A DNA stretch of 61,908 nt from a virus (lineage: Duplodnaviria > Caudoviricetes): the IMG/VR virus record IMGVR_UViG_3300033067_000570, positions 1-61,908 of that record; one strand, given 5' to 3'. Both the position numbers and the translations under genes were made by a program. Below the pieces are notes generated by a model that was not told the origin of the DNA, did no database searches, and saw only the letters and a program-made list of their open reading frames with translations. Below, one piece after another: positions 1 to 57,255 of the stretch (the stretch's first letter is position 1; every line of letters begins with the position of its first letter).

Positions 1-2466
1 CCCCGATTCAATCATCGGAAGGATCCCATCAAAACGAAACTCCTTGTCAGCCGCACCCGGCGCGATAGCAATGATAGGGGCCGGTGCCTGTCCCTGGCGG
101 GCCTGGATGTACTGCGTACCTGATCCTTTATCTTCAACCAGGATGGCCGAAGCGCTCCACCGCGTAGCTGCTCCCTCAATTTCAGTGATCAGCTGATTAA
201 ACTCAACCTTCTTACGCACAACTTCGGCGAGGTAATGGCGGTGGTTCATGTCCTCAATCCAGACGCCGATGGCAGTGTACTTCGATCGTGCCGTAGTTTT
301 ATTTGCCGTGTCCACACTGACGACAACCCGCCGCCTATTCTTTTTGAGCAGGTTCCCTCCGTCAGTGAATTCATCTCTCGGCAGCGTCTCATACCGCTGG
401 AACCAGCCACCCTTACACGCACCACCAGCGTCGTCGGTCGGTTTTCCCTTGTACAGGGCGTTCCAGTCGCGGGCATCGAGAGTATCTTTCAACTCCATCA
501 ACATGTCATACGTGTAGAACGACGGCCACAACGGCTCGCCGATATCCCTACCAAGAGGATCGATCGCCGCTTCCGCCTCATTCTCGATCACGCCGTTGAA
601 GTTGATGATCTCCCACGGAATACCTTTCCCCTCCTTGTTGTATCTTTCGATACGACCAATGGGATCATCCTCGTGCCAGCGAGTGGCAATCAAAAAGATA
701 GGGGAGTGCGGCAGAAAGCGCGTACGGAAGTCGGCCCAAAGCCACTTCCACACCTTCTCGCGTACAATTGCGCTATCAGCCTGCTCCTTAGATCCGATGA
801 GATCGTCACCGCCACCGCAGTGCCCACGATAGCCAGCGAGGGCCTGTCCAACACCCTTGGTGACATAGCCCCCTTTTTTATTATCGAGTCTCCAGTTGCT
901 GGACGCCGTTGAACGTGAATTCAGCGTCGTGCCACTAAAAACCTCCGTATACCTGGGGTCTTGAATAATCGACCGAACAGGCGCGCCGAACTCTTTCTCA
1001 CAAAAATCCTGAGAATGTCCCCCCTGCAAATAACGATGCTTGGGGTTCTTGCCGAGGTACCACGCAACGAAATAGCGCGAACAGAACTTGGTGTTGTGCG
1101 TCACGATGTGACCGCGTCCCGCCAGATACAGCTCGTCTGGCGCATCCACAGCGATGCACTGCGTCGGTACCATCTCCGTGGGCTCAAAACGGATATAGCG
1201 CCCGTACCATCCTTTGAGGTTTTTGAGGCGAGCGGCTTTGCGTGGGAGTCTGAAACACTCAACGCCAGAAAAGTTCACACACCAACACGGACTGCGGACG
1301 TAGCCACCCGTGCGGTGGTGGGGTTTTGAATTCTGCTCGATCAGCGAGTTCGGAACGCCCAACGACCAAAGCAGTTCGCGGAACTGATCAATAAGCTGCT
1401 TATTCGTGTTGACGAACTGACAACCACCGTTCTTCCGCGCATGTCCGTCAGTATCCATCAAACCCTGGACAAGCGCCAACCGCTGGGCAGCGGACGCGTA
1501 TAGATAGGCGGCAGGGATGTGCTTATTATTCAGTACACCGGCAGCGCGGAGTTGTGTTGACAGCCCGTACGCCGTGAATGTGATCCTCTCCCCGTCATTT
1601 GAAATGCCGTATCCGGCCGCACGAAATTGGTCCTCGGCGTGCGCACGATCTTTATCGCCCACAGTAATGCGGCTAGACTTGGAAGTGCCGTCACCGAGCC
1701 AATACCCTAAGATATACGGGTCTAGCGGAAGCTTCGCTTCTGGATACTCAACTGGCGCGTAGTCCGGCAGACGGAAGGCGCGGGGATCTTTCGAGGATGT
1801 GTATCGCTCGTACAACTCCTGTGTTGAAAAGACGGCCGGCGTTCTGGCGTTACGATCCTTGTAGACGCTCCAAAGATGATCGTCTGACACGACGATTTCT
1901 TCGCCATCAGATGTAATGGCGCGGTAACATGGCTTATAGAATATCTCGGACTTCGAAATGACGCGCGTTGGCTTACCATCAGTCCCAAAAAGCGTGTCGC
2001 CGACAACAACATCCCCCATCTGGATATAGCCAGACGGCGAAGGAAGTAAAGTCGTCAGCGCACATCCTTTGGCCGAACCAGGGGGCATACTGAAAGTAGC
2101 GCGCATGAGGTCACGGCGCTCAATCTGCTCCAGGTAGTCACACATGACATCATGGTGCTCGGCGGGTGGTTCCTCCGGCGTCATGTACTCAGTGAAGCAC
2201 GACAAGCTATTTGGCGCAGCCTCTTTTAGCCGCGCAAGATACTCCCGCTCCTTCTGTTCGTGCATTTCGGCCAGCGCAGCGTACTGACGCTCGGGATCAG
2301 TCGTCTGTGTTAGCTCAGTGAATATCCGCGCCTGCTGATCAGACAACGCTACTCCACGTCGAAGTGACGTGTCAAGCGTCGTGATCGATTTGTTCAAGGA
2401 GTCCAACAGTCTCCTGTATGTCTTTCGTTTCGCGTCGGATATGGGATAGTTGCTGAACTGGGTCAC
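1..2466 (-). CDS. terL: Terminase large subunit (intein-containing; 3' end runs off the window)
   Basis: Absent from the ORF track because there is no stop in the window. Manual translation from GTG 2466: MTQFSNYPISDAKRK...FTEYMTPEEPPAEHH...MPPGSAK|intein|TKFCSRYFVAWYLGKNP...GYRGHCGGGDDLIGS...ADKEFRFDGILPMIESG. Walker A PPGSAKT is restored after splicing. Start codon uncertain (overlaps terS). Confidence 0.93.
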   Translation of the reverse strand, partial: MTQFSNYPISDAKRKTYRRLLDSLNKSITTLDTSLRRGVALSDQQARIFTELTQTTDPERQYAALAEMHEQKEREYLARLKEAAPNSLSCFTEYMTPEEPPAEHHDVMCDYLEQIERRDLMRATFSMPPGSAKGCALTTLLPSPSGYIQMGDVVVGDTLFGTDGKPTRVISKSEIFYKPCYRAITSDGEEIVVSDDHLWSVYKDRNARTPAVFSTQELYERYTSSKDPRAFRLPDYAPVEYPEAKLPLDPYILGYWLGDGTSKSSRITVGDKDRAHAEDQFRAAGYGISNDGERITFTAYGLSTQLRAAGVLNNKHIPAAYLYASAAQRLALVQGLMDTDGHARKNGGCQFVNTNKQLIDQFRELLWSLGVPNSLIEQNSKPHHRTGGYVRSPCWCVNFSGVECFRLPRKAARLKNLKGWYGRYIRFEPTEMVPTQCIAVDAPDELYLAGRGHIVTHNTKFCSRYFVAWYLGKNPKHRYLQGGHSQDFCEKEFGAPVRSIIQDPRYTEVFSGTTLNSRSTASSNWRLDNKKGGYVTKGVGQALAGYRGHCGGGDDLIGSKEQADSAIVREKVWKWLWADFRTRFLPHSPIFLIATRWHEDDPIGRIERYNKEGKGIPWEIINFNGVIENEAEAAIDPLGRDIGEPLWPSFYTYDMLMELKDTLDARDWNALYKGKPTDDAGGACKGGWFQRYETLPRDEFTDGGNLLKKNRRRVVVSVDTANKTTARSKYTAIGVWIEDMNHRHYLAEVVRKKVEFNQLITEIEGAATRWSASAILVEDKGSGTQYIQARQGQAPAPIIAIAPGAADKEFRFDGILPMIESG
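1093..2067 (-). mobile_element. Class-3-type intein with LAGLIDADG homing endonuclease in the TerL Walker A (325 aa)
   Basis: Starts GCALTTLLPSPSG; block B SDDHLW; LAGLIDADG motifs YILGYWLGDG and LVQGLMDTDG; block F PTQCIAVDAPDELYLAG; ends VTHN with +1 Thr. Confidence 0.92.
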
Positions 2467-5261: not shown

Positions 5262-8200
5262 TCAGGATGCTTTCGCTTTTTCAACGATCTTATAGAATGC
5301 TCCCCTGTTATCACGTCCGCGCTCCCACGAACATTCTAGCGGTATGTCTAGTATCTTCACGGTCTTGGCTGTGTACTCGCGGCTCAGCAGGTGTCCGAGC
5401 GATTTTATCACTCCTGCCTTGTCTCTTCCTCCAAGCGTCAGGCCCAAGGCCGGGTCCAGCGTTTCGTCACTCTTTCCGAACGCACTCATGCCAGCAACCG
5501 TCAGCGCGTCAAAAATCTCGGTGATGCGGACGGGTTTGTCCCGGTATTTCAGCCACACTCGTCTGGTTACTTCTACGATCGCGTCCTGGTCCTCATTCCG
5601 CACGGCCAGGTATTCGGCGCGGTTGGATAGAAATCCTTTGATGTCAGCGCATTCAAGGACGCCTCCGATCGCGTTTGCCCATTCCGTGAAGCTCTGCATC
5701 ACTACGTTCCCGGGCGGGCATCCCTTGGCGATCCAGTTTTGAATGAGCGTGTGGCACGCCCACACGTGCGCCAGCCGGCGATCCATCAGGACGGCGTGCA
5801 GCGGGTCGTGCTTGTAGTATCCCTTGCCGCGATCCATCGCCGGGTTTGCCGTAGCGGCGTCCATGAAGATCGGAACGTTGCGGCGCATCATATCTTCGGA
5901 GAAAGGAATACGATTTCCGGCCATAATCCAGGTACAGCGGATCGGGATGGTTACGTTCTCAGACTGGCCGAGGATGCGATCCGTCCACATTCCTGCCGTC
6001 AATGCGGCAGCAATGTCCGCATTTTCAACCTTATGTTGTATGTTGTCTAAAAACAACATAGAGGCACCAGCGCGCAACGAAGATGTCACGGACTTCTTGA
6101 TTTCCTCGTTCGTGTGTGACAACGTCTGTACACGTGCACGGGGTTCGCCCTCGAAGATGCTCCACGCCGTGTCAACGAGATACCCGGCGCCAGTGCCACG
6201 TTCCGGCTTATCGATGTGGTAGTTGGGACACGGCCCCTCGATCATCTCCCGCATGAACGGCTGGAGGATCATTGCGATCGTGTTTGCCCGCGATCCCGTA
6301 CCGCGTTCCAGGTTTGGCAGCGGGAAGTTGTCTTCATCGAGTTCGTCACTACGGATAGGCAGCGGATCACTGCCACTAAAGTGGTCAGAGAACGGGAAGT
6401 CGCGCAGAATGTCGTAGATGCAATTCCTTGCATCAGCTACTTCATCTTTGTCCGGTACTTCGGATACGCCGAAGAACGTCACATCGTTCGGCGGGTCGAA
6501 GAAGATGCCCGCTTCGCGAGAATACCCCGGCGTGATGACCAGTGATCCGTCTGCGGCGAAGATCGGAACACGCACGACGCGATCAAGCGGTGGCATACTC
6601 CACTCGCGCGAGCCAGCTAAATAGTTGAGGATTGCCCCCGGCGTATTTTCTTCCTCGACCTCGGCTCCGGTGTCTTCGTCCACTATGACGAACTTGATGC
6701 CAAGATCTGTCATCAGCGCGTCCCAGCGTCTGCTATCCTCAACATTGAATTCGCAGGCACGGATGCCATCTTGAATGCGCTGAACGTACACGAACGTCCC
6801 CTCAGGCCGCTTGTAGACAACCGGGTCTTTCGTGTTACGGTGCTCGATCAGGCGCTTCACAACCTTGCGCTTGTCGTTCTTTGTCCAGCTTGCCCACACG
6901 ACGCTTACATCGTCGATGTTGTCCGGGATTGGAGGTCCGGCGAACGGCGTTGCGTCTTCATCCGCCTGATCACTGCGCTCATACTGGCGCAACAGCGGAC
7001 GTAGCTCCGTCATTGTCCATGCGCTGGTTTCTGAGAGTTGCCTGAGCCTGTCGGCCTTCTCAACCGGATCATCGACGCGCGCAATCCGCTGCAGCGCTTC
7101 TCGGATTTGGTCTGCTGATGCGCGGGCCGATCCTTCATTAGGCGCTGCGGCGGCCACAGCATCTATTACAGCGGCAGCTTCATCCTCAGCGTTCGGACAC
7201 CAATCCACCAACTCCATCGCGTCAGCGACGCCATAAGCGGCGCACAGCTTATCCAGGTACCACGCTCGGTCTCCGCCACTCTCTGTCTTGCAGGAGTTGT
7301 GCGAACACTGCGCGGCAAAACCGTTCATGCGCGCTGACGCGTTCTCCACATAGAAGCCCGCGTCATTCGCTGCTTGCGTCGAGTGCGCTTCTGCGTTCGG
7401 GCACGCCACCGTGGCCTTGTCCATGCCAGGGCTGCCGACGAACTCCGCGTTGACCGCTTCAAGCCACTGAACAATCTCGAAATCGTTGGCGTGCTTTGCG
7501 ATGAATCGTATGAGATTTTTTGTCGCAAAATCTTGGCGCGGCTCTCCGCTGCCGTGTCCGGCTGCAATGAACGGATTGACAGACGTGGCCGCTTTGGTAG
7601 CCGGTTTAATTCCTTCCAGATCAAGGGCGTCGCCCACAATGATGCGCAACTCTTGGCCGGTTGCGCCAGGAGCGACGCGAGGCGTGTACATGAGCCGCGA
7701 CGGGTCCGTGCACGATTGGTCCCACGCCACTCCGAGCATGGCTGCGACGGCCTCGTACTTGTCCTTCCAGGCGGTGATAGCTTCTTTCTGCGTCGGTCGG
7801 ACCGTCGCAAAGACGAACGGCTGCTCCAATACGAATAGGACGCGCAGGCGGTGCATCGGCGCGTGGTGCACGACGTACCTGACGCCGCCATCGCCGTGAG
7901 CGCGCGTGACGCTGGTGATCGTGTCGGCCAGCGCGTCCGTGATCTTGGATTCGCTCTTGAGGTAGCGCTTCACAATATCCTGGACGTTATCGGCGGTCAG
8001 CGTCGTTTTGTTGGTCTTACACCACCGTATGAGGCGCTGCTCGTTGATGTCCGTCGCGCTTTTCAAGTGTGAATGCGTCGTCCAGATGATCGCGAACAGA
8101 CCAAGCTGCTTAATGCGCTCGTGCACAGCATCGACGGTTTCGCCCGTGTCGCAGTCGATCATCAGGACATAGTTCGCGACGGCGTTGTTCGCAGTCCGCT

Positions 8201-8783: not shown

Positions 8784-9281
8784 TTACTCCGAGGTCTTTT
8801 GAAATAGAAGCTCATTTGCTGGCCTGATTGCGCGAATACGGGATTCTGGCGCTCCTAATACGTCGGCGAACTGTAGTGAATTGATGGGGCCACCTGTATA
8901 GATGTCCATATCTTCGACAAGCGTGACAGCGGCGGCCGGAGTGAGCCCAGCGCGCATGGCGGCTATTGCAAGATCTCCGCCAGTCCCGATGGCGTACACG
9001 TCCCGCATTCGCGTTAATGCATATCCGAGCACATATATGTGCACGTCTTCTTTGAAGAAAACGACAAACACATCTGTATCATTCCCGGGGTACACTTCGG
9101 GATCAGCCCCGTTTTTTTCCCACGCAATCAGTGCGTTGAACATGCGGGGATCTCCCGCAAGTGCGTAGACTTTTCCGTCCTTGGCGCGCACTTTTTCACG
9201 GTCAATCCACTTGATGTCCGTGCCACTGGTTTGTTGAGAGTCCCAGGCGATCTCAGTATTGTTCCACGCGATTGTTGTCAT
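8784..9281 (-). CDS. Ntn-hydrolase / proteasome-beta (HslV-like) fold peptidase
   Basis: Starts M-TTIA (GGAGG RBS) with an N-terminal Thr nucleophile; motifs DSQ.T, K, AG, AIGTGG..A.AAM and D.YTGG. Confidence 0.75.
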   Translation of the reverse strand: MTTIAWNNTEIAWDSQQTSGTDIKWIDREKVRAKDGKVYALAGDPRMFNALIAWEKNGADPEVYPGNDTDVFVVFFKEDVHIYVLGYALTRMRDVYAIGTGGDLAIAAMRAGLTPAAAVTLVEDMDIYTGGPINSLQFADVLGAPESRIRAIRPANELLFQKTSE

Positions 9282-9297
9282 CGGGCCTCCTCGTTGA

Positions 9298-9513
9298 TTA
9301 CGATCCATCTGTCTTCAGCGGGAACAGCTCTGGAGCTATTTCGTTGATCGTGGTGTCGTCAGCATCGAGAGCGCCATTTTCTCGATGCTGGTACATCCGA
9401 TTGCGTGGTTTTCGGTAAGCGTGTACCGGCCACTCACGTGACATAGTGGCGCTCCCTTCGTAAAAGAGCTTCTTCACGGCTGCGAGCGCTTTTTCTTTGG
9501 TTGGTGTGCTCAT
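9298..9513 (-). CDS. Hypothetical protein
   Basis: ATG with an upstream GGAG; same strand and operon as its neighbours. Confidence 0.6.
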   Translation of the reverse strand: MSTPTKEKALAAVKKLFYEGSATMSREWPVHAYRKPRNRMYQHRENGALDADDTTINEIAPELFPLKTDGS

Positions 9514-9580: not shown

Positions 9581-10165
9581 CTAGATCGCGTTAACGAGGT
9601 CGCTAACGCGGTCAGACGCATCGACGTAGTGTTCGGTAGTATCGATGTATTTGTGCCCGGCGATCAGCTGAACATCTTTCAGTGAGCATCCGTGCGTGTT
9701 CGCGATACGCGCAGCCCGCGTGATGAAGGTGCGTCGGCCGCTGTGTGATGTGACGCCATACAACCCAGCAGCCGTGTACAGACGCGAGATGTAGCGCTGC
9801 AGTGTGTTTGGGCTGACTTCGCTAGTGCCATCACAGGAAGTTATGACCGTGCTTTTCTGTTTTTTTGATTGTGTCGTCGCGTACAGCGCTTGAAGCGCTG
9901 CGTGTACGGCCGGATGCATCGGGATCGCTCGCTTGTGGCCTTTCTTGGCGATGCTTGCCGGGATTTCAATGAATGTCTCAGCGATTTCTCCACTGGCGGT
10001 TGTGACGTTTCGCCACTGTAGTCCAGCGATTTCTTGCGCTCGGAGACCGGCCTTGAACGACAGAAGTACTATGGCGTAATCCCTGACAGGTACGCTGCTG
10101 TTTTTCGCCACATAATCAAGGACTTGCAGCAGCTGATCATTCGTCAACGTCTTCGCTTGAGCCAT
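9581..10165 (-). CDS. Tyrosine recombinase (catalytic domain only, ~194 aa)
   Basis: Full catalytic set R (GLRAQE), K (AKKG), HxxR (HSGRR), H (AGH), Y (EHY); no N-terminal core- or arm-binding domain. Confidence 0.9.
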   Translation of the reverse strand: MAQAKTLTNDQLLQVLDYVAKNSSVPVRDYAIVLLSFKAGLRAQEIAGLQWRNVTTASGEIAETFIEIPASIAKKGHKRAIPMHPAVHAALQALYATTQSKKQKSTVITSCDGTSEVSPNTLQRYISRLYTAAGLYGVTSHSGRRTFITRAARIANTHGCSLKDVQLIAGHKYIDTTEHYVDASDRVSDLVNAI

Positions 10166-10246
10166 TTCAATTTCTCCAACCACTAATCTCACATAAACAC
10201 CCTACCACGCACACGTGAGATATCCTAAACCTATAGTGCTGCGTGG

Positions 10247-10287
10247 TTAATTCGAGGTTGACATTGTACTTTATTCCCCGCTATTGT
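10247..10287 (+). promoter_or_regulatory. sigma70-like promoter with overlapping near-consensus CtrA box
   Basis: TTAA-N7-TTGAC (10247-10262) overlaps TTGACA-18-TATTGT upstream of the holin gene. Confidence 0.5.
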
Positions 10288-10313
10288 GCCTACTACAATC
10301 TTCGGAGCCCGCG

Positions 10314-10652
10314 ATGAACTCATTCTTTCAGAACACCGCCGAGATTATGTGGGTGTTTCTCGCCATGTGCGGCGGAGTTGCGCGTTACCTCGATCGGTAC
10401 ATTCGTACTGGAAAAGCCCCGCAACTCAGCATGTTGGCGGCGCACACCGTTGTGTCCGGGTTTTCTGGATTCATGGTTGCGCAGGCGGTCATCAAGTTTC
10501 AGCCCGACTGGGCTCTTGTAGCCGCCGGTGTCGGCGGTTATTTGGGCACGCAGGGGCTTGACTGGATCGCATCTATCTTCCAAGATAAATTTGGTGGGAA
10601 AATGCGGACCCCCAACGATGCGACTAACAAATCCGACACGGGTGCAGAATGA
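10314..10652 (+). CDS. Holin (LydA-like phage holin family)
   Basis: Three hydrophobic segments; GGVARYL...VSGFSG...AGVGGYLG pattern; charged C-terminus. Confidence 0.75.
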   Translation: MNSFFQNTAEIMWVFLAMCGGVARYLDRYIRTGKAPQLSMLAAHTVVSGFSGFMVAQAVIKFQPDWALVAAGVGGYLGTQGLDWIASIFQDKFGGKMRTPNDATNKSDTGAE

Positions 10653-10933
10653 ATAAGTTGCCGAAATACCTGTGGGCCGTGAACGTTGTTGTGGCCGGAT
10701 TGATCGGACAATTTACTGCGCCGATCGTGATGCGCTACGGCGGATCACATGATGTTGCTATGTTCGCTACGGGCGTTCTCGGATACATGTCCGCGCTTAT
10801 GGGTGAACACGCGTACATCCTGCTGAGTGAGCATTATTCGCGCTGCCGTCGTTCGCGGCGCGCTGCTCGGTTTATTGTTTCTCGGCAGCAGCTGCGCGCA
10901 TCTTTAGTTGATTCGCAGTTGAAGCTTCTTTGA
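10649..10933 (+). CDS. Holin-like membrane protein (possible paralog or antiholin)
   Basis: ATGA overlap with the holin; VVAGLIG...ATGVLGYM resembles holin TM2-TM3; basic C-terminal tail. Confidence 0.5.
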   Translation: MNKLPKYLWAVNVVVAGLIGQFTAPIVMRYGGSHDVAMFATGVLGYMSALMGEHAYILLSEHYSRCRRSRRAARFIVSRQQLRASLVDSQLKLL

Positions 10934-11228
10934 GCTTCTTCAAAAAGTCAGCATCACCCATCTGCTTAGCCATCCAGACGAATTCAGTGTGAGCCTCAGT
11001 AATTGACGGCGTACTGATGTACGTTATTGGCACGCCTTCGTGGGAAAACTGCCACGTCCCGACGCACAGCCGTCCGCGCACATCAACCAAGTTGTGCGCG
11101 TAAAAAACCTTGCCCAAATAGGTGAATTTGTACAGCGCAGAAAGCTTTGTCGCGCCTATCGTGTACGATTCACCCCTGGCGTCACTAATACGTGAACTTG
11201 TAATGCGTGGTCTCCCATTCCTCGGCAC
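10872..11228 (-). CDS. Hypothetical protein
   Basis: ORF in the minus-strand cluster; start uncertain because it overlaps the HigA-like ORF. Confidence 0.5.
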   Translation of the reverse strand: MPRNGRPRITSSRISDARGESYTIGATKLSALYKFTYLGKVFYAHNLVDVRGRLCVGTWQFSHEGVPITYISTPSITEAHTEFVWMAKQMGDADFLKKLKEASTANQLKMRAAAAEKQ

Positions 11229-11358
11229 GCCTGACGGCGTCGTTCAGCTCTCGGTATTCCGGGGTGTTCGGCATGGAGCCCCACAGACTGTTGATGCGCT
11301 CCAACACGGCCTCATACTCGTCCTCGGTTACGATAGCGTTGGTATTCAGTTTAGCCAT
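11185..11358 (-). CDS. 57-aa HigA antitoxin N-terminal-domain-like protein (no HTH)
   Basis: Below the ORF-track cutoff. MAKLNTNAIVTEDEYEAVLERINSLWGSMPNTPEYRELNDAVRRAEEWETTHYKFTY*; AAGGTGA RBS. Matches the recalled I.TE.DYEA.L.RI..LW...PGTPE..EL..L....E.YE..HY pattern of COG5499-type HigA N-termini. Confidence 0.7.
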   Translation of the reverse strand: MAKLNTNAIVTEDEYEAVLERINSLWGSMPNTPEYRELNDAVRRAEEWETTHYKFTY

Positions 11359-11777
11359 GTGTGAATCACCTTCTCTGGAAGTTTGGCCGGCGTATATACA
11401 CCGGTCGCGTCATTGATGGTGCAGTGCTCAGTTTGCTGGAACCTAGCGACCAGCTTCGCTACCCACTTCTCTGCGTTCGCTGCTCTCCAGATGTTTGCGT
11501 GTGCCCGCCCGATGTTGTTGTTGTGGAGCATCATGTAGAAGAAACACAACAGCCGATTCAAATCGATTGCCGCAGCAACTTCATTCATTGTTCCAGACGC
11601 GTATACACGGTTGAATGCGTCTTCGAAGTCAGCGTGGACTGGGCGCCGTCGTGCCTCTGGCAGGTTCTCCATGATGAGGCAGTAGCGTTGCGCGATCGAC
11701 GCATACGGGTTGTCAATCAGCGCGACTGGGCTGTGGATGAACCCTCGCGAAATATCGCTGATGGGTGACATCCTCAT
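11346..11777 (-). CDS. Hypothetical protein
   Basis: Likely start ATG 11777, overlapping the stop of the GH73 gene (ATGA). Confidence 0.6.
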   Translation of the reverse strand: MRMSPISDISRGFIHSPVALIDNPYASIAQRYCLIMENLPEARRRPVHADFEDAFNRVYASGTMNEVAAAIDLNRLLCFFYMMLHNNNIGRAHANIWRAANAEKWVAKLVARFQQTEHCTINDATGVYTPAKLPEKVIHTWLN

Positions 11778-12265
11778 GTCTTTAACAGCGGTTCCAGCCT
11801 GTTCCTGCATAGACGTTTGATGTCCTTCACATATTTCTCGTTGTGCGTGGGTGACATGCCAACCCAAATCGGGCCGATATAGTCGATGAATGCGTCTCCC
11901 GAATGTACGTGTCTGCGCCAATTCGGATAGGCGCTAACGATGTCGAATCTGGCCCAGTATCCAGAAATGAACGCCGCCTTATCATGGAAGTGAACATACG
12001 GGTCTATTTTCCCTTGCCAGTCTTTATAAGTGACGGCCCAACCGAACGGCTTCATGCCTTTACGCCACTTCATCCCGGCGAAGTTGTTGTTCTTCATGGC
12101 CAAGTCTGACAGGCCCCAACCGCTTTCCAATGCCCATTGCGCCAGGGTCATCGCTTTCAGCTGCGGAAATTCGATATCCGCGCCCCTGTACACTTCGATC
12201 AGGTCGAGGAATCCGGGATCTGTGTTCCCTGGCAGGTAGGGACTCATCTTTGAGGTCTGTGTCAT
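11774..12265 (-). CDS. Glucosaminidase (GH73/FlgJ-like) peptidoglycan hydrolase
   Basis: LAQWALESGWG.S.LA...NNFAGMK signature with the catalytic Glu. Confidence 0.85.
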   Translation of the reverse strand: MTQTSKMSPYLPGNTDPGFLDLIEVYRGADIEFPQLKAMTLAQWALESGWGLSDLAMKNNNFAGMKWRKGMKPFGWAVTYKDWQGKIDPYVHFHDKAAFISGYWARFDIVSAYPNWRRHVHSGDAFIDYIGPIWVGMSPTHNEKYVKDIKRLCRNRLEPLLKT

Positions 12266-12420: not shown

Positions 12421-14613
12421 ATGTTGACCGTAATGGCGCCGCGAGAAGTCAGTTCTTATGGCGTACAAATCACGAACACCTTTTCGATCAAGGCGAACGG
12501 CAAGGCGTTCAAGGTTCTGATTGACGGGCTGTATTCTGACAAGATCCGCGCCGTCGTTCGCGAGCTTTGGACGAACGCGTACGATAGCCACGTCATGGCG
12601 AACAAGGCCGACGTTCCGTTCGACTGCCATCTTCCGACATTCTCCGATCCGACGTTCACAGTCCGCGATTATGGTGTGAGTCTGTCGGATGACGGCGTCA
12701 TGCATCTATATACGACCGTGTTCGAGTCTTCAAAGGAAGACACGAATACGCAGGTCGGAAAGTTGGGCCTCGGCTCCAAGAGCCCGTTTGCCTACACGGA
12801 CACGTTCACTATCACCGCGTGGCTTGACGGTCGGAAGCGCACGTATTCTGCCTACATCGGTGCCGATTACGTGCCGCAGATTTCCCGCATGTCTGATGAG
12901 GCGTCCGATGAGCCGCAGGGCTTCGCCGTGTCGTTTCCTGTGAAGACGTACGATTACGGCGCATTCGCTTCGGCGGCGCGCGGTGTTGTTCACGGGTTCG
13001 ACGTGATCCCAGTGTTTACTGGCTCAACTAGCGTTAAGCCTGACGCTGATCCTGTTCTTTTTTCTGGTAATGGATGGAAGCTGTTCGCGGCTGGTGGCCG
13101 ATATTCTTCGGCGCAAGCGCGTCAAGGTTGCGTCATTTATCCGCTGTCCAGCTACTCTATTCCGAATTTGTCAGACGAGCACGCCGCGCTGCTGCAGAGC
13201 CGCCTTCTGATCGATTTCGACATCGGTTTGCTGGAAATCAGCGCAAACCGCGAAGCGCTCGGCTACGATGCGCAAACCTGCACCAACATTCGCACCCGCC
13301 TTGATCAGATCTCAGCCGAAATGCACGACCATTATGTCGCAGCACTTTCTGGCGTCAAGACTTACTGGGAATTCATGATACTCCGCAAAGAGTTGGCGAA
13401 CAGCGGTATTCCTGACGCCGTCGTTGAGAAGGCTGTTTTCAATGGCTTCTCTTTGAAAAGTGTGTGTCGTCGTTTCGGCACCACCTTGGAAATCGGGCGG
13501 AAACATATCCGTAACGCCCCTCTTGTCCTCGATCACATCAAGCTCAAGCGTGGGATTATCCCGCGCCTCAACACGCCGCGTGACAGGAGCATTTATTTCA
13601 TTCCTGGTAAAATAGTCGTGTACGTTCAAGATCCTATGGTTCCTACACCGTACACAGCAGCGCGGATTGCTGCGCACTACTCGCGCACGTATTCAGACGT
13701 GCGCCAAGCGCTTTTTATCAAGTGCTCTCGCAACAGCGTCCTGTTCAAGCGCTTGAACGTGATTATGGGGCGTCCGCCGGAAGACGTGTTTGTGTTTGTT
13801 CACGACATTCCCAAGCCTGAAAGTGCTGTCAAGTCTGGCAGCAAGCCGCGTGCAGCTGTGAAGGAACTTGCGTCGGCATACTCGCTGTACGATAGGGAAG
13901 TCAGCGCCGATGATGGGGGCTATTACATGCCGCTCGCACACGGACGCTTCTTGAACATGATCAACGTTTCTGTTGCGCCGAAGTCTTCTGAGGCGCTTAA
14001 TGCGATCACGCAGGCAGATGCGTGGAGCCTTGTTCGCGCCCTCAAGGGATTGAACATGATCCCAAACGATGCGCAAGTCTATGGCATTCCTGCGACGCGC
14101 CGCGACATCACGAACAACTCCGGCTGGGTTTCTGTTTGGGACATAGCTCGCGAAGCTATGACGCATTTTGACGCCACCAAGGCCGCCGAATGGACCGCCG
14201 TTCGTGATCTACGCAGCTACACTGGTGACGCGTCTGTTCGTCTTGTTGCTTCATTTGTTGCCGATAAGGTAATGTTTCCTTCTGCCAACAGTGTCGCAGC
14301 TAAGACGATGCGCGAATATGTGCGCCGTATTTCCGCACTTCCGCCGGCTGAATACGACGCATATAAACACTATGATCGGATCATTGCGGCGTGTTACTCC
14401 CCGGCTGCGCCCGAGTTTGTAACTACGTGCGCTGCGGATCCTGACATTTCATTTGTCACTGATTTCAATACCACGTATTCGCGTGTTTCGGATTTCATTA
14501 GTGGTTCATCTAGGTACTCCGCCTTCGTTGAGCCATTAACTGCGTTGGTGATTGATTACATCAGGCTTGTTGACGCAGCGGCTGAGCGTGATACTGTCGA
14601 TGCAGTCGCGTGA
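12421..14613 (+). CDS. rIIA: rIIA-like protein
   Basis: N-terminal GHKL/HSP90-like domain (LYSDKIRAVVREL.TNA.D, DYG..L, G.LGLGSKSPFAYTD); ISANREAL motif; rIIB lies downstream. Confidence 0.88.
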   Translation: MLTVMAPREVSSYGVQITNTFSIKANGKAFKVLIDGLYSDKIRAVVRELWTNAYDSHVMANKADVPFDCHLPTFSDPTFTVRDYGVSLSDDGVMHLYTTVFESSKEDTNTQVGKLGLGSKSPFAYTDTFTITAWLDGRKRTYSAYIGADYVPQISRMSDEASDEPQGFAVSFPVKTYDYGAFASAARGVVHGFDVIPVFTGSTSVKPDADPVLFSGNGWKLFAAGGRYSSAQARQGCVIYPLSSYSIPNLSDEHAALLQSRLLIDFDIGLLEISANREALGYDAQTCTNIRTRLDQISAEMHDHYVAALSGVKTYWEFMILRKELANSGIPDAVVEKAVFNGFSLKSVCRRFGTTLEIGRKHIRNAPLVLDHIKLKRGIIPRLNTPRDRSIYFIPGKIVVYVQDPMVPTPYTAARIAAHYSRTYSDVRQALFIKCSRNSVLFKRLNVIMGRPPEDVFVFVHDIPKPESAVKSGSKPRAAVKELASAYSLYDREVSADDGGYYMPLAHGRFLNMINVSVAPKSSEALNAITQADAWSLVRALKGLNMIPNDAQVYGIPATRRDITNNSGWVSVWDIAREAMTHFDATKAAEWTAVRDLRSYTGDASVRLVASFVADKVMFPSANSVAAKTMREYVRRISALPPAEYDAYKHYDRIIAACYSPAAPEFVTTCAADPDISFVTDFNTTYSRVSDFISGSSRYSAFVEPLTALVIDYIRLVDAAAERDTVDAVA

Positions 14614-15430: not shown

Positions 15431-16480
15431 ATGTTCGGGTATACGATGACCCCCAATTCTGTCAACATTCTGATCGATGGTCAGATGCGTACCGTTGATA
15501 AGTCACACGCCAATCACGCCGCCGTGCTTTCCGTCCTGCGGGACATCCCCTCGATCGGCGAGGCCGTGGCGGTCTCTCGACTTCGGAAGCTCATCGATAT
15601 TCCGGCCTATGTCGCGCTGGCGACGCTCGGCCGCGTCACTATCTGCAAGGACGCCGTACTGTACGACGGCGCCGAGGTTCATGGCGTCATCTCCGATCGA
15701 CTGTTGGAGCTGCTGGGCGGAGGCTTCGATGTGGGTCCGCTCGGCCTTCTGCTCAACCGCGTCATGCTCAATCCTGTCCAGAGCGCGCGTGATGAGCTGT
15801 ACCTCTGGCTCGAACGCTCCAAGATGCCGCTCACGGCTGACGGCTGCTTCTTGGCCTACAAAAAGGTCATGAGCGACTATAAGTCGTATCACGACGGAGT
15901 GACGGACAATTCTATCGGCACAAAGCTTCCGCCGATGGATGATGTCGATACGGACAGGACGAATACGTGCTCGCGCGGCTATCACTTCTGTTCGCATGAT
16001 TACCTTCCGAGCTATTACGGCAGCGAGGGCCGAGTCGTCGTCGTGAAGGTTGCGCCAGAAGATGTTCGGGCTATCCCCGATGACTACGACAACGCCAAGG
16101 GGCGTGCAGCTACCTACGAAGTCGTCGGTGAAGTTCCTGAGAAGGAAGCGGAGTTTGCGTTCGTCGGGCGTCCGGTCGTCACACACTACGGAACGTACGG
16201 TGACAGCTCGGCGGGCGATGGCAGCGTGTCTCTCGATGACCGGTGGGCGGACATGGAGGAAGAAGAAGAAGATGATCCGTTCCTGCGGGATGATGACGAC
16301 GATGATGCCGGCGATGATGTCAACTACGTCGTGACCGACGACGACAAGATGGCCGAGGCAATCAGGGCGGAGCACTCCGCTGAACAGAACGCGCCTTTGC
16401 CTCCGATTGCCGACGATACGTTGCCGGCAATGGAGCATCCGGCTCCAACTCCGTGGTGGCACGTCCTGCTCCGCCGCTGA
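15431..16480 (+). CDS. rIIB: rIIB-like protein
   Basis: LY.WL...MPLT.DGCFLAYKKV, D.D...TCSRGYH and P.DY...KGR..YEV motifs; acidic tail; AAGGAG RBS. Confidence 0.88.
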   Translation: MFGYTMTPNSVNILIDGQMRTVDKSHANHAAVLSVLRDIPSIGEAVAVSRLRKLIDIPAYVALATLGRVTICKDAVLYDGAEVHGVISDRLLELLGGGFDVGPLGLLLNRVMLNPVQSARDELYLWLERSKMPLTADGCFLAYKKVMSDYKSYHDGVTDNSIGTKLPPMDDVDTDRTNTCSRGYHFCSHDYLPSYYGSEGRVVVVKVAPEDVRAIPDDYDNAKGRAATYEVVGEVPEKEAEFAFVGRPVVTHYGTYGDSSAGDGSVSLDDRWADMEEEEEDDPFLRDDDDDDAGDDVNYVVTDDDKMAEAIRAEHSAEQNAPLPPIADDTLPAMEHPAPTPWWHVLLRR

Positions 16481-55670: not shown

Positions 55671-55771
55671 TATGACTAGGGTTTCAAAAGAAAGAAAAGG
55701 GTGGGAGATGCTTTGTTACAGCCCGCATCTCCCGAAGGGCCGGTCGGATGGTCGTGCCGTCCCGTTAGGGA

Positions 55772-56017
55772 TTAGGCAGCGAAGCGCATCTCGACAATAC
55801 CGTTGTCGTTGGCATTTGTGTTACAGACAGGCTCCACACACCTACTTACCGTCAATCGATTCCACTTCGCCCCCATCAACAACGCTCCACGGAATTGAAC
55901 CGCTTTCGTATCATGATACCTATGCACTGCACACCAGTAGCTAGTCTGGTCGGAGTGCTGTTGGTGGAGGCGGCGGGTAACGATCCCGCGTCTTGACGTT
56001 TTTTGGAAGTGCTTCAT
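55772..56017 (-). CDS. Hypothetical protein
   Basis: ATG ORF on the operon strand. Confidence 0.45.
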   Translation of the reverse strand: MKHFQKTSRRGIVTRRLHQQHSDQTSYWCAVHRYHDTKAVQFRGALLMGAKWNRLTVSRCVEPVCNTNANDNGIVEMRFAA

Positions 56018-56091
56018 CGCTCGTCCATGAAGCGGACAGTGCCATGACGGCTTACCGCTGTCAATGACACTGTTTCGCCGATGGTTAATTC

Positions 56092-57255
56092 TTACAAGCG
56101 ATAGTACATCCCGTGGATGTCGAGATCTACCGCCGCAGCCGTCGCGCCGTTGTTGATTGCGGCCTGTGACGCCATGAAGATATTGTCTCTCGGAATTTCA
56201 GTCGATATTGTTCCTGTCGCAACGTAGGTCGTACCAAGACGCTCTACAGTATAAGAAATACTTGATCCGTTCGGTGCACAAGATATTGTCACGTGATACA
56301 CTACGTCGGCGCTGACCGGGAAGTTAGCTCCCAAGCCCACCTTCGTTGGAAGGCCCACGTTGTCGTTATGGAATATAGACAACGTCGTATCTGCGTCGTC
56401 AAATCCCACGCCGAACATGTCAAAATCAGCCAACGATCCCGGCGATGCGGTGTCAACCACAAATGATGCATCACCAAGAAAACCAACGAACCCGCGCTGT
56501 GTCGCAGCCAATGTACCTGTCAGAGCAAACCGGGCTTGGAAGTTGAACCCACCCAGTCCACTATCATTACCCCTCCAGATAAATCTGGATGACTGCCGAA
56601 TACCTGCTGAACTATTAGCAGTCGCTCCAGTCCGATAAGACAATCTACGCGCCGCAGCGTTCAACCCCGTGTTTGTAACGGTGCGAGAAATAGCTGAGCC
56701 AAGAGTTGACGTGAGAAAGCCCATCTGTGACACGGTCGTCGAACTCGGGTTTGGAACCCAATAACCTTCAACCGTTCTCCCAAGCGCATCATCGAGCGCA
56801 ATCGTACCTGTTTTATTCGGCAGAGACAGCGTCCGTTCAGCGCCGGCCGTGAGGGACGCAGCATCGAACTTAACACTCTTTGTAGTGTCTGTCTTATCGC
56901 GTACAGTCAGTTCTTCTGCGGTAACGTATACGCGACCCTTCGTTGCGTGAGACGTGGACGACAGCGTCAGATTTTCTCCGCCGCCGGTTCCGCCAATAAG
57001 CGTTTGTCCTCCGCTCTTGCCTGCCAATTTCAAATACTGAGAGTCGTCTGTGCCCAAAACGCGCGTGATGCTCGAACCATAGGTGATAGCCGTGCAATGT
57101 TGCGTCGTAAAGCCCACGCCACCGGAATCCATTCCTTTGCGAATGGTCACGACATAGGTACCCGGCAGGAGTTCTGCCGGATTCGTTACGACGTAATCGC
57201 CCTCTTTCGTGAAGTTATCGAGGGCCGCGCCGTCATGAAGGACCGTTAGCGCCAT
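56092..57255 (-). CDS. Virion fiber-like protein
   Basis: Gly/Thr-rich; QYL.L.G..GGQ...GG fiber motif, R.L.LPNK.GT.A motif and a C-terminal beta-sandwich. Confidence 0.7.
   Translation of the reverse strand: MALTVLHDGAALDNFTKEGDYVVTNPAELLPGTYVVTIRKGMDSGGVGFTTQHCTAITYGSSITRVLGTDDSQYLKLAGKSGGQTLIGGTGGGENLTLSSTSHATKGRVYVTAEELTVRDKTDTTKSVKFDAASLTAGAERTLSLPNKTGTIALDDALGRTVEGYWVPNPSSTTVSQMGFLTSTLGSAISRTVTNTGLNAAARRLSYRTGATANSSAGIRQSSRFIWRGNDSGLGGFNFQARFALTGTLAATQRGFVGFLGDASFVVDTASPGSLADFDMFGVGFDDADTTLSIFHNDNVGLPTKVGLGANFPVSADVVYHVTISCAPNGSSISYTVERLGTTYVATGTISTEIPRDNIFMASQAAINNGATAAAVDLDIHGMYYRL

Follow-up and report, generated by a model that had tools for sequence, protein, structure and literature searches.

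A 57-codon gene on a Caudoviricetes record

The stretch of DNA analysed here (61,908 nucleotides, nt; positions 1 to 61,908 of the virus record IMGVR_UViG_3300033067_000570, Duplodnaviria, Caudoviricetes; hereafter the window) is a linear IMG/VR record of an uncultured virus, with an estimated completeness of 32%, and its phage nature is apparent from rIIA/rIIB-like, helicase-primase, DNA polymerase, ribonucleotide reductase, tail and portal genes. On its minus strand lies a 57-amino-acid (aa) open reading frame (ORF) that very probably encodes a stand-alone homolog of the HigB-binding hairpin of the antitoxin HigA of the Escherichia coli K-12 type. A sequence-only reading of the window had proposed this ORF as a HigA N-terminal domain devoid of the helix-turn-helix (HTH) half and as a candidate decoy for host toxins. 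The ORF and its presumed ribosome binding site are located as follows:

11185..11358, minus strand: 57-aa ORF with ATG start, probable stand-alone homolog of the HigA N-terminal two-helix (HigB-binding) domain
11366..11373, minus strand: Shine-Dalgarno-like GAAGGTGA, 7 nt 5' of the ATG of the 57-aa ORF and inside the 3' end of the preceding ORF X

Short ORFs like this one often arise by chance, and 68 with 30 aa or more lie between positions 9000 and 14000, so that the evidence for a gene has to come from homology. The peptide quoted in the sequence-only reading, IVTEDEYEAVLERINSLWGSMPNTPEYRELNDAVRRAEEWETTHY, is an exact part of the translation. Among 5.8 billion proteins, a word-indexed search found four with a length of exactly 57 aa, the window's own and three that are 89, 89 and 82% identical to it; all searches combined yield four close relatives with 82-89% identity, each 57 aa long, the window's own record not being counted. 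When 1.8 billion representatives were searched exhaustively with HMMER, 21 proteins passed E <= 1e-3, and two of these also passed E <= 1e-10. Start, frame and stop of the ORF are preserved when the window is aligned at the DNA level with two independent loci: L001, on an 82-kb contig from a Lysobacterales metagenome-assembled genome (MAG), and L005, a 1-kb metagenome contig in which the Shine-Dalgarno element occurs as the single-base variant GAGGGTGA. Outside the overlaps with neighbouring genes, 8 codons vary synonymously only and 10 change the amino acid among the three aligned loci, so that purifying selection on the ORF is only moderate. With the exact translation, GAAGGTGA at a distance of 7 nt and the homologs, the earlier claim of an ORF with a good ribosome binding site is borne out, and comparison at the sequence level confirms the 57-aa ORF as a real gene.

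Relationship to the N-terminal domain of HigA

The relationship to HigA is established via an intermediate. The 57-aa protein matches P0018, a protein of 173 aa, over residues 5-51 of the latter with 49% identity (E 3.4e-4 among 1.8 billion proteins). Residues 6-114 of P0018 in turn match the solved HigA chains 5ycl_A and 5ifg_B (Shigella, E. coli; E 3.6e-5 and 4.9e-5), where the N-terminal part of P0018 aligns from about residue 21 of HigA onwards. Two HigA proteins from the bacterial order of G001, the only genome with a near-identical phage contig, are also matched directly by the 57-aa protein in phmmer (E ~1e-5 in a small database). Among the phage families, which carry no curated cut-off, PHROG 10398 (66 positions; function not assigned) is matched by residues 4-54 on positions 1-53 at E 9e-5 and 23.6 bits, and positions 2-62 of the 166 in PHROG 1373, a 'transcriptional regulator', are matched at E 4.5e-3. 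The nearest clusters in an Atlas search comprise 54-55 aa, and one of them is auto-named as a HigA family. Homology to the N-terminal helical domain of HigA, as claimed from the sequence at first sight, thus holds through P0018 to solved HigA and through the HigB-linked HigA loci described below. The HigA type in question is presumably the one that the earlier reading labels COG5499.

The domain is often found on its own. A stand-alone length of 49-73 aa is seen in 11 of the 21 representatives matched by HMMER, and the nearest relatives of the 57-aa protein, down to about 45% identity, are likewise stand-alone proteins of 54-66 aa. PHROG 10398 and the metagenomic proteins P0006-P0024 (49-73 aa, 41-56% identical) represent this same domain in stand-alone form and have no described function; most of these relatives end in ...HYP(I/M), whereas the window protein ends in ...HYKFTY. 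A second, divergent family member lacking the HTH is present in G001 itself, as a 69-aa ORF on contig C20 (L049, 2573..2782, plus strand; profile E 5.6e-7).

Further searches delimit this family. A phmmer search of the PDB with the 57-aa ORF returned nothing, a word search for longer homologs gave 52 candidates with none at E <= 0.01, and tblastn with the 57-aa ORF and P0006 against 50,697 phage records was empty. Scans of viral contigs with the 57-aa ORF, ORF Y (the gene that follows it), ORF X, P0006 and P0009 found nothing, and the scan with P0010 found one partial match. Five proteins of 337-971 aa with several pentatricopeptide repeat- or coiled-coil-like stretches (P0012, P0013, P0017, P0021 and P0023) were excluded from the alignments as likely chance helical matches. 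Two loci (L003 and L004) were not counted as relatives, their short word-level matches lying within bigger ORFs of 272 and 1305 aa.

Absence of an HTH half and of a HigB gene

In E. coli HigA, two helices wrap around HigB and the HTH lies C-terminally (PMC7984235, section 7), a C-terminal position that is also given for K-12 HigA in PMC6987408. The phage ORF ends at residue 57, four residues past the domain, and carries no C-terminal HTH of the XRE type. We searched six frames of the window and of the 12-kb L001 locus with filters off: a hidden Markov model (HMM) of the C-terminal half, built from 24 HigA proteins, found nothing (best E 2.2), and neither did an HMM of HigB (best E 5.3). An HMM of the N-terminal domain matched the 57-aa ORF alone across six frames, at E 6e-33. 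The RelE/ParE superfamily models PF05015, PF05016, PF06296 and PF05973 have no match in the window, an estimated 32% of the genome, and their controls were positive; a search of the window with PF09907 was empty too, though its own controls were also silent, the same model later being positive in the genome G002. Both the missing HTH and the missing cognate HigB noted at first sight are therefore confirmed for the window, by the silent C-terminal-half HMM and by the HigB HMM together with the four Pfam models, respectively.

Since no remnant of an HTH or of HigB is detectable in any frame, the ORF is a clean stand-alone domain and not a frameshifted higA. A frameshifted or split higA is further excluded by the following ORF Y, which encodes no HTH, and by the stop codon, which is preserved in all relatives; the fragment of a full higA that the sequence-only reading had feared is hence not what lies at this locus.

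Genomic partners of the domain and the likely host

A profile of the short form matches 41 of 300 scored genomes of G001's class, the gammaproteobacteria (38 of 297 if three genomes flagged as unpublished, G140, G396 and G242, are left aside), and we examined 30 of the matched loci with local HMMs. At 22 of them the domain heads a protein with 61-72 more residues, and the adjoining frame matches the HigB HMM. Two loci (L037, L048) are decayed higBA pairs, one (L042) encodes a full-length HigA in a 3-kb locus without HigB, three (L027, L038, L045) hold short cut-off frames that still enter the linker/HTH part, and L019 is the window's relative; L042 and, among the 22, L031 rest on the flagged genomes. 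In the remaining locus, L041, a gammaproteobacterial protein (1415..1804, plus strand) combines the domain with a HicB-like antitoxin domain (PF15919, E 1.2e-9), again without HigB in the locus, so that the hairpin is shuffled between antitoxin types.

E. coli K-12 HigB/YgjN belongs to PF09907; it is a ribosome-dependent mRNase whose gene precedes that of the antitoxin (PMC11980606). The same order is seen in a Geobacter locus (L002), in which a PF09907 HigB_toxin gene (E 2.3e-29) is followed by a HigA with HTH_3 at residues 64-116, and all six PF09907 loci fetched from G001's order show a higB-higA pair. Two observations concern other phages: phage D6 encodes, next to a RelE-family toxin and another protein annotated as HigA, a HigA of this type in full length, and in the uncultured 485-kb phage LR745208 the domain lies in the middle of a 290-aa protein without a Pfam family (L007, 2324..3196, plus strand).

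The sequence-only reading had pointed to alphaproteobacterial hosts, which is not supported: the closest relative resides in a MAG labelled Lysobacterales/Xanthomonadales. PF09907 is present in 14 of 101 genomes of G001's order, so that HigB is available in the likely host order.

Predicted fold and model of a complex with HigB

An AlphaFold 2 (AF2) model of the 57-aa protein, with a mean predicted local distance difference test (pLDDT) value of 79.9, forms a two-helix hairpin with helices at residues 12-25 and 33-52. Foldseek comparison with 350,542 PDB chains placed HigA chains from HigBA complexes in the top four rows (template modelling score 0.60-0.66, probability 0.82-0.93); the structural alignment gives about 24% identity to the solved chains. 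A fold search of BFVD with the 57-aa protein returned no significant row.

We then modelled the protein together with a HigB from G001's order (locus L015), using the alignments A2 for the phage protein and A6 for HigB. The interface score ipSAE was 0.72, 0.70 and 0.72 in three runs, the best of three controls reaching 0.01; the mark set for such models is attained by 58 of 80 complexes with a solved structure, as well as by 2 of 110 mismatched pairs, counts that are only roughly valid here since the alignments were self-supplied. The runs share at least 95% of their contacts, with a partner pLDDT of 81-84. Predicted contacts involve residues 15-16, 19, 22-23, 26-27, 30, 38-39, 42, 45-46, 49, 53 and 55-57 of the phage protein and residues 2, 4-8, 10, 27-28, 30-31 and 73-82 of HigB, and the interface takes in the family-invariant Y15 and E49 as well as the near-invariant Y53. 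Among close relatives, 3 of 18 interface positions vary as opposed to 13 of 39 other positions, a difference that is not significant (Fisher p 0.23). The multimer test suggested in the earlier reading is thus passed with a HigB from the likely host order, a result that may reflect the solved HigBA complexes. To the model, the phage protein still resembles a HigB binder, and in this sense the prediction supports HigB binding.

A candidate binder of host HigB

On these grounds we tentatively favour, at somewhat less than even odds, that the 57-aa protein acts in trans as a binder of a host HigB-type toxin, i.e. as a decoy antitoxin that does not bind DNA. It would be produced during infection, bind free host PF09907 HigB-type toxin in trans and replace the labile host HigA as the expression of host genes breaks down; abortive infection, in the form of translation arrest driven by the toxin, might thereby be prevented or delayed. 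Lacking an HTH, the protein would exert no repression on the host higBA promoter. Supporting context is given by rIIA-like and rIIB-like genes in the neighbourhood; rIIA and rIIB of phage T4 counter an abortive-infection system.

A number of results weigh against this interpretation. Pfam, NCBIfam (two chance-level rows) and PADLOC contain no match for the 57-aa ORF, and the short-form profile (n=14) run against the PDB gives HigA at E 0.29 (profile positions 8-50 on residues 23-62 of 5ifg_B and 20-59 of 5ycl_A), ranked under the tetratricopeptide repeat (TPR) protein Fis1 (E 0.005). The E-values of the four leading HigA rows in Foldseek, 0.85-1.7, are not significant. The pass of the complex model may stem from likeness to HigBA complexes of this type that have already been solved (5IFG, 5YCL, 6KML), and may then be a matter of model memory. 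The conserved GTHxxYD stretch of HigB (residues 87-93) lies outside the predicted contacts, so that blocking of the active site is not predicted. The domain is joined to unrelated regions in P0009, P0014, P0025 and the 290-aa phage protein as well as to the HicB-like domain in L041; given this promiscuity, the partner of the 57-aa protein need not be HigB. G001 (5.3 Mb), a MAG that may be incomplete and into which the phage contig may have been mis-binned, has no PF09907 match, the control G002 being positive. The gene follows the endolysin gene in an overlapping run of four and thus looks like a late gene, whereas a counter-defence gene would be expected to be expressed early. Finally, neutralization of HigB by the hairpin alone, without the HigA dimer, is a hypothetical step.

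Compared with known systems, the phage protein is closest to HigA of E. coli K-12 and Shigella flexneri (5IFG, 5YCL, 6KML, 6JQ4; partner PF09907 HigB/YgjN). Its similarity to the N-terminal two-helix region is homologous in nature via the intermediate, the best fold matches are to this HigA, and in the complex model it holds HigB with the same region. In contrast to K-12 HigA, it lacks the C-terminal XRE HTH/dimerization part and an adjacent higB, and it is encoded by a phage. The small T4 protein Dmd would offer a functional parallel, as it binds and blocks the toxins RnlA and LsoA. To our knowledge, Dmd is not homologous to the cognate antitoxins; both are small phage proteins, and where Dmd binds a host RNase toxin, the 57-aa protein is a homolog of part of an antitoxin.

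Mobile elements that carry an antitoxin homolog without the toxin are a further likeness. Phage DarG-like proteins counter DarTG1 according to PMC11825919, and a vibriophage with an antitoxin mimic of DarTG is covered in bioRxiv 10.1101/2023.12.14.571748; for the leading regions of plasmids, orphan antitoxins are proposed as counter-defence in PMC11541004. As these sources present them, DarG-like proteins are enzymes that reverse the modification made by the toxin, whereas the present case concerns the binding domain of a type II protein antitoxin alone, known from its sequence and a model. The window protein is an antitoxin homolog on a phage, and no cognate toxin gene was found in the window. 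A full-text literature search, with most subscription journals and supplements outside its coverage, found no paper on an HTH-less HigA N-terminal domain in phages. The HigB of a toxin-antitoxin-chaperone module triggers abortive infection, according to PMC11980606.

If HigB is neutralized, the gene would offer a direct handle on the role of K-12-type higBA in phage defence, a role long debated for chromosomal type II modules; phages could evade such defences with a 6-kDa binding domain, and a natural minimal HigB inhibitor would be at hand for structural or biotechnological use. More broadly, it is conceivable, if doubtful, that the stand-alone proteins form a widespread HTH-less family of 'toxin sponges', in which phages have pared a type II antitoxin down to its hairpin and neutralize abortive infection by PF09907 HigB across hosts, leaving host transcription unaffected. 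In that event, counter-defence by a protein domain mimicking a type II antitoxin would be seen here for the first time, and ordinary chromosomal higBA modules of this type would act as anti-phage defences.

The overlapping gene run and a possible partner within the phage

The 57-aa ORF is the third of four overlapping minus-strand genes, of which X, the 57-aa ORF and Y form a cluster located between the endolysin and the holin:

11774..12265, minus strand: endolysin-like glucosaminidase (PF01832, E 3.3e-10; PHROG endolysin families), first gene of the run
11346..11777, minus strand: ORF X, ~143 aa, with the start placed at the likely ATG at 11777, which overlaps the endolysin stop (ATGA)
10872..11228, minus strand: ORF Y, 116-118 aa, in the +1 frame, overlapping the 3' end of the 57-aa ORF by ~44 nt
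11188-11202 and 11118-11132, minus strand: two 15-nt direct repeats, 70 nt apart, 13 of 15 bases identical
10284..10652: holin (PHROG 785, E 2.3e-16), converging on the run together with a second membrane-protein-like ORF

The ORF list also holds a longer TTG form of ORF X (11346..11921), and the stop of X overlaps the start of the 57-aa ORF by 13 nt. This apparent translational coupling of the 57-aa gene to two orphan genes, which the sequence-only reading had overlooked, gives rise to a rival explanation with a partner encoded by the phage: the hairpin would bind and control Y or X, and the genes would constitute a phage-internal toxin-antitoxin-like or regulatory module with the antitoxin first, perhaps concerned with the timing of lysis. 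We consider this unlikely. In its favour are the overlaps on both sides, the conservation of the trio X, 57-aa ORF and Y in L001 and L005, the position of the cluster between endolysin and holin, and the protein P0009, in which the domain is followed by a stretch weakly resembling the start of the Y core (BLASTP E 0.018, 30% over 47 residues, a single comparison). It is further favoured by Y being coding: in the 66 alignment columns past the 57-aa stop (columns 198-263), 9 of 11 varying columns are at third codon positions of the Y frame, and 9 codons vary synonymously only as opposed to 2 that change the amino acid, from which Y is clearly under purifying selection. This synteny comes entirely from relatives that are about 90% identical and is hence not independent. 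In the 49 loci and the proteins compared, no other family member has X or Y as a neighbour, P0009 not being matched at E 1. If the 57-aa protein were paired with Y, the two genes would represent a novel phage module that makes use of an antitoxin domain.

The two orphans themselves give little indication of a toxin. X and Y have no match in Pfam, NCBIfam, PHROG or PADLOC and no relatives beyond this phage lineage (for X, L001/L019 and L005 only), and an Atlas search for Y gave a best score of 0.76. The AF2 model of Y has a low-confidence pLDDT of 63, with a disordered stretch of 28 residues followed by four strands and two helices, and fold searches with it yielded no convincing match (Foldseek best E 0.14; VIA best Z 4.4). 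For Y as a RelE/HigB-like toxin there is thus no support from families or, as far as a model of this low confidence can tell, from folds, which weighs against a module of the toxin-antitoxin kind.

The start codon of Y is not conserved: the window has GTG there, the 10.7-kb contig of P0026 has ATG, and in L001 (Y at 6116..6487) the first possible start is a TTG that already lies within the folded core. Translation of Y might begin by reinitiation or at a non-canonical codon, or might involve recoding. The direct repeats encode YKFTY in two different frames, as the C-terminus of the 57-aa protein and as the first strand of the folded core of Y, and both of their differences fall on third codon positions. 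They may go back to an ancestral fusion gene that an insertion has split in two; as both copies went into the search pattern, its chance estimate is no fair test.

The unconserved start of Y and the YKFTY repeat, with a stop after its first copy, had prompted us to consider a programmed +1 frameshift or ribosome hopping that would join the 57-aa ORF to Y. We set this aside, as the last sense codon differs in L005 and there is no slippery site; the 'gap' after the 57-aa stop moreover shows the coding periodicity of the +1 frame, which weakens the idea further. The local RNA fold is only modest (z -2.1).

Other explanations for the 57-aa protein

The fold of the HigA N-terminal domain might also have been reused as a general helical-hairpin adaptor for some other host or phage target, a possibility to which we give little weight. 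It would account for the several unrelated C-terminal regions to which the domain is joined, for the many stand-alone forms (11 of 21 with at most 73 aa; Atlas clusters of 54-55 aa) and for the lack of a HigB match in G001, and the resemblance of the hairpin to that of TPR proteins (Fis1, E 0.005) fits with it as well. Membership in the TPR repeats as such was rejected: the match to Fis1 spans one 33-residue hairpin, and the model has two helices and no tandem array. What speaks against an adaptor is that the genomic partner of the domain, where one can be read, proves to be HigB at 22 to 24 of the 30 loci and that the most conserved residues of the stand-alone family contact HigB in the model.

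It is improbable that the ORF is a decaying, functionless remnant of a former phage-borne higBA module. Short truncated higA remnants are known in bacteria (L027, L038, L045, L048), and the codon ratio of just 8 synonymous to 10 changing codons would suit a remnant. The bacterial remnants, however, retain the start of the linker/HTH (PDPV...), while the phage ORF stops four residues past the domain. Six-frame searches of the window and of L001 with filters off show no trace of an HTH half or of HigB (all E > 2), the ORF has its own Shine-Dalgarno element, its frame and stop are preserved in all relatives, and relatives down to 45% identity are likewise stand-alone proteins of 54-66 aa.

Least probable is the dominant-negative competitor also put forward in the sequence-only reading, which would displace HigA from HigB, or bind HigA, without neutralization and thereby alter higBA regulation or free the toxin for the benefit of the phage: the predicted binding surface is the same as that of HigA and the GTHxxYD stretch of HigB is left uncovered in the model, but freeing an mRNase that stops translation would presumably hurt the phage.

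Other features of the phage record

Divergent from the cluster lie the two rII-like genes, and just downstream of the lysis genes are a peptidase and a recombinase gene:

12421..14613, plus strand: rIIA-like gene (PHROG 612, E 1.3e-108)
15431..16480, plus strand: rIIB-like gene (PHROG 609, E 8.2e-55)
8784..9308, minus strand: HslV-family peptidase-like gene (PHROG 1040, E 9e-29)
9581..10192, minus strand: short tyrosine recombinase of 203 aa (PF00589, E 4e-24)

Farther away, the window carries a permuted (two-piece) transfer-messenger RNA (tmRNA) gene at 55772..56013 on the minus strand (55681..56054 according to ARAGORN), with the tag peptide ANDNGIVEMRFAA. It matches the Rfam family RF04321 with 82.5 bits at a gathering score of 47. 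Adjoining the tmRNA gene is a 387-aa ORF (56092..57255) whose matches are confined to a PHROG of unassigned function.

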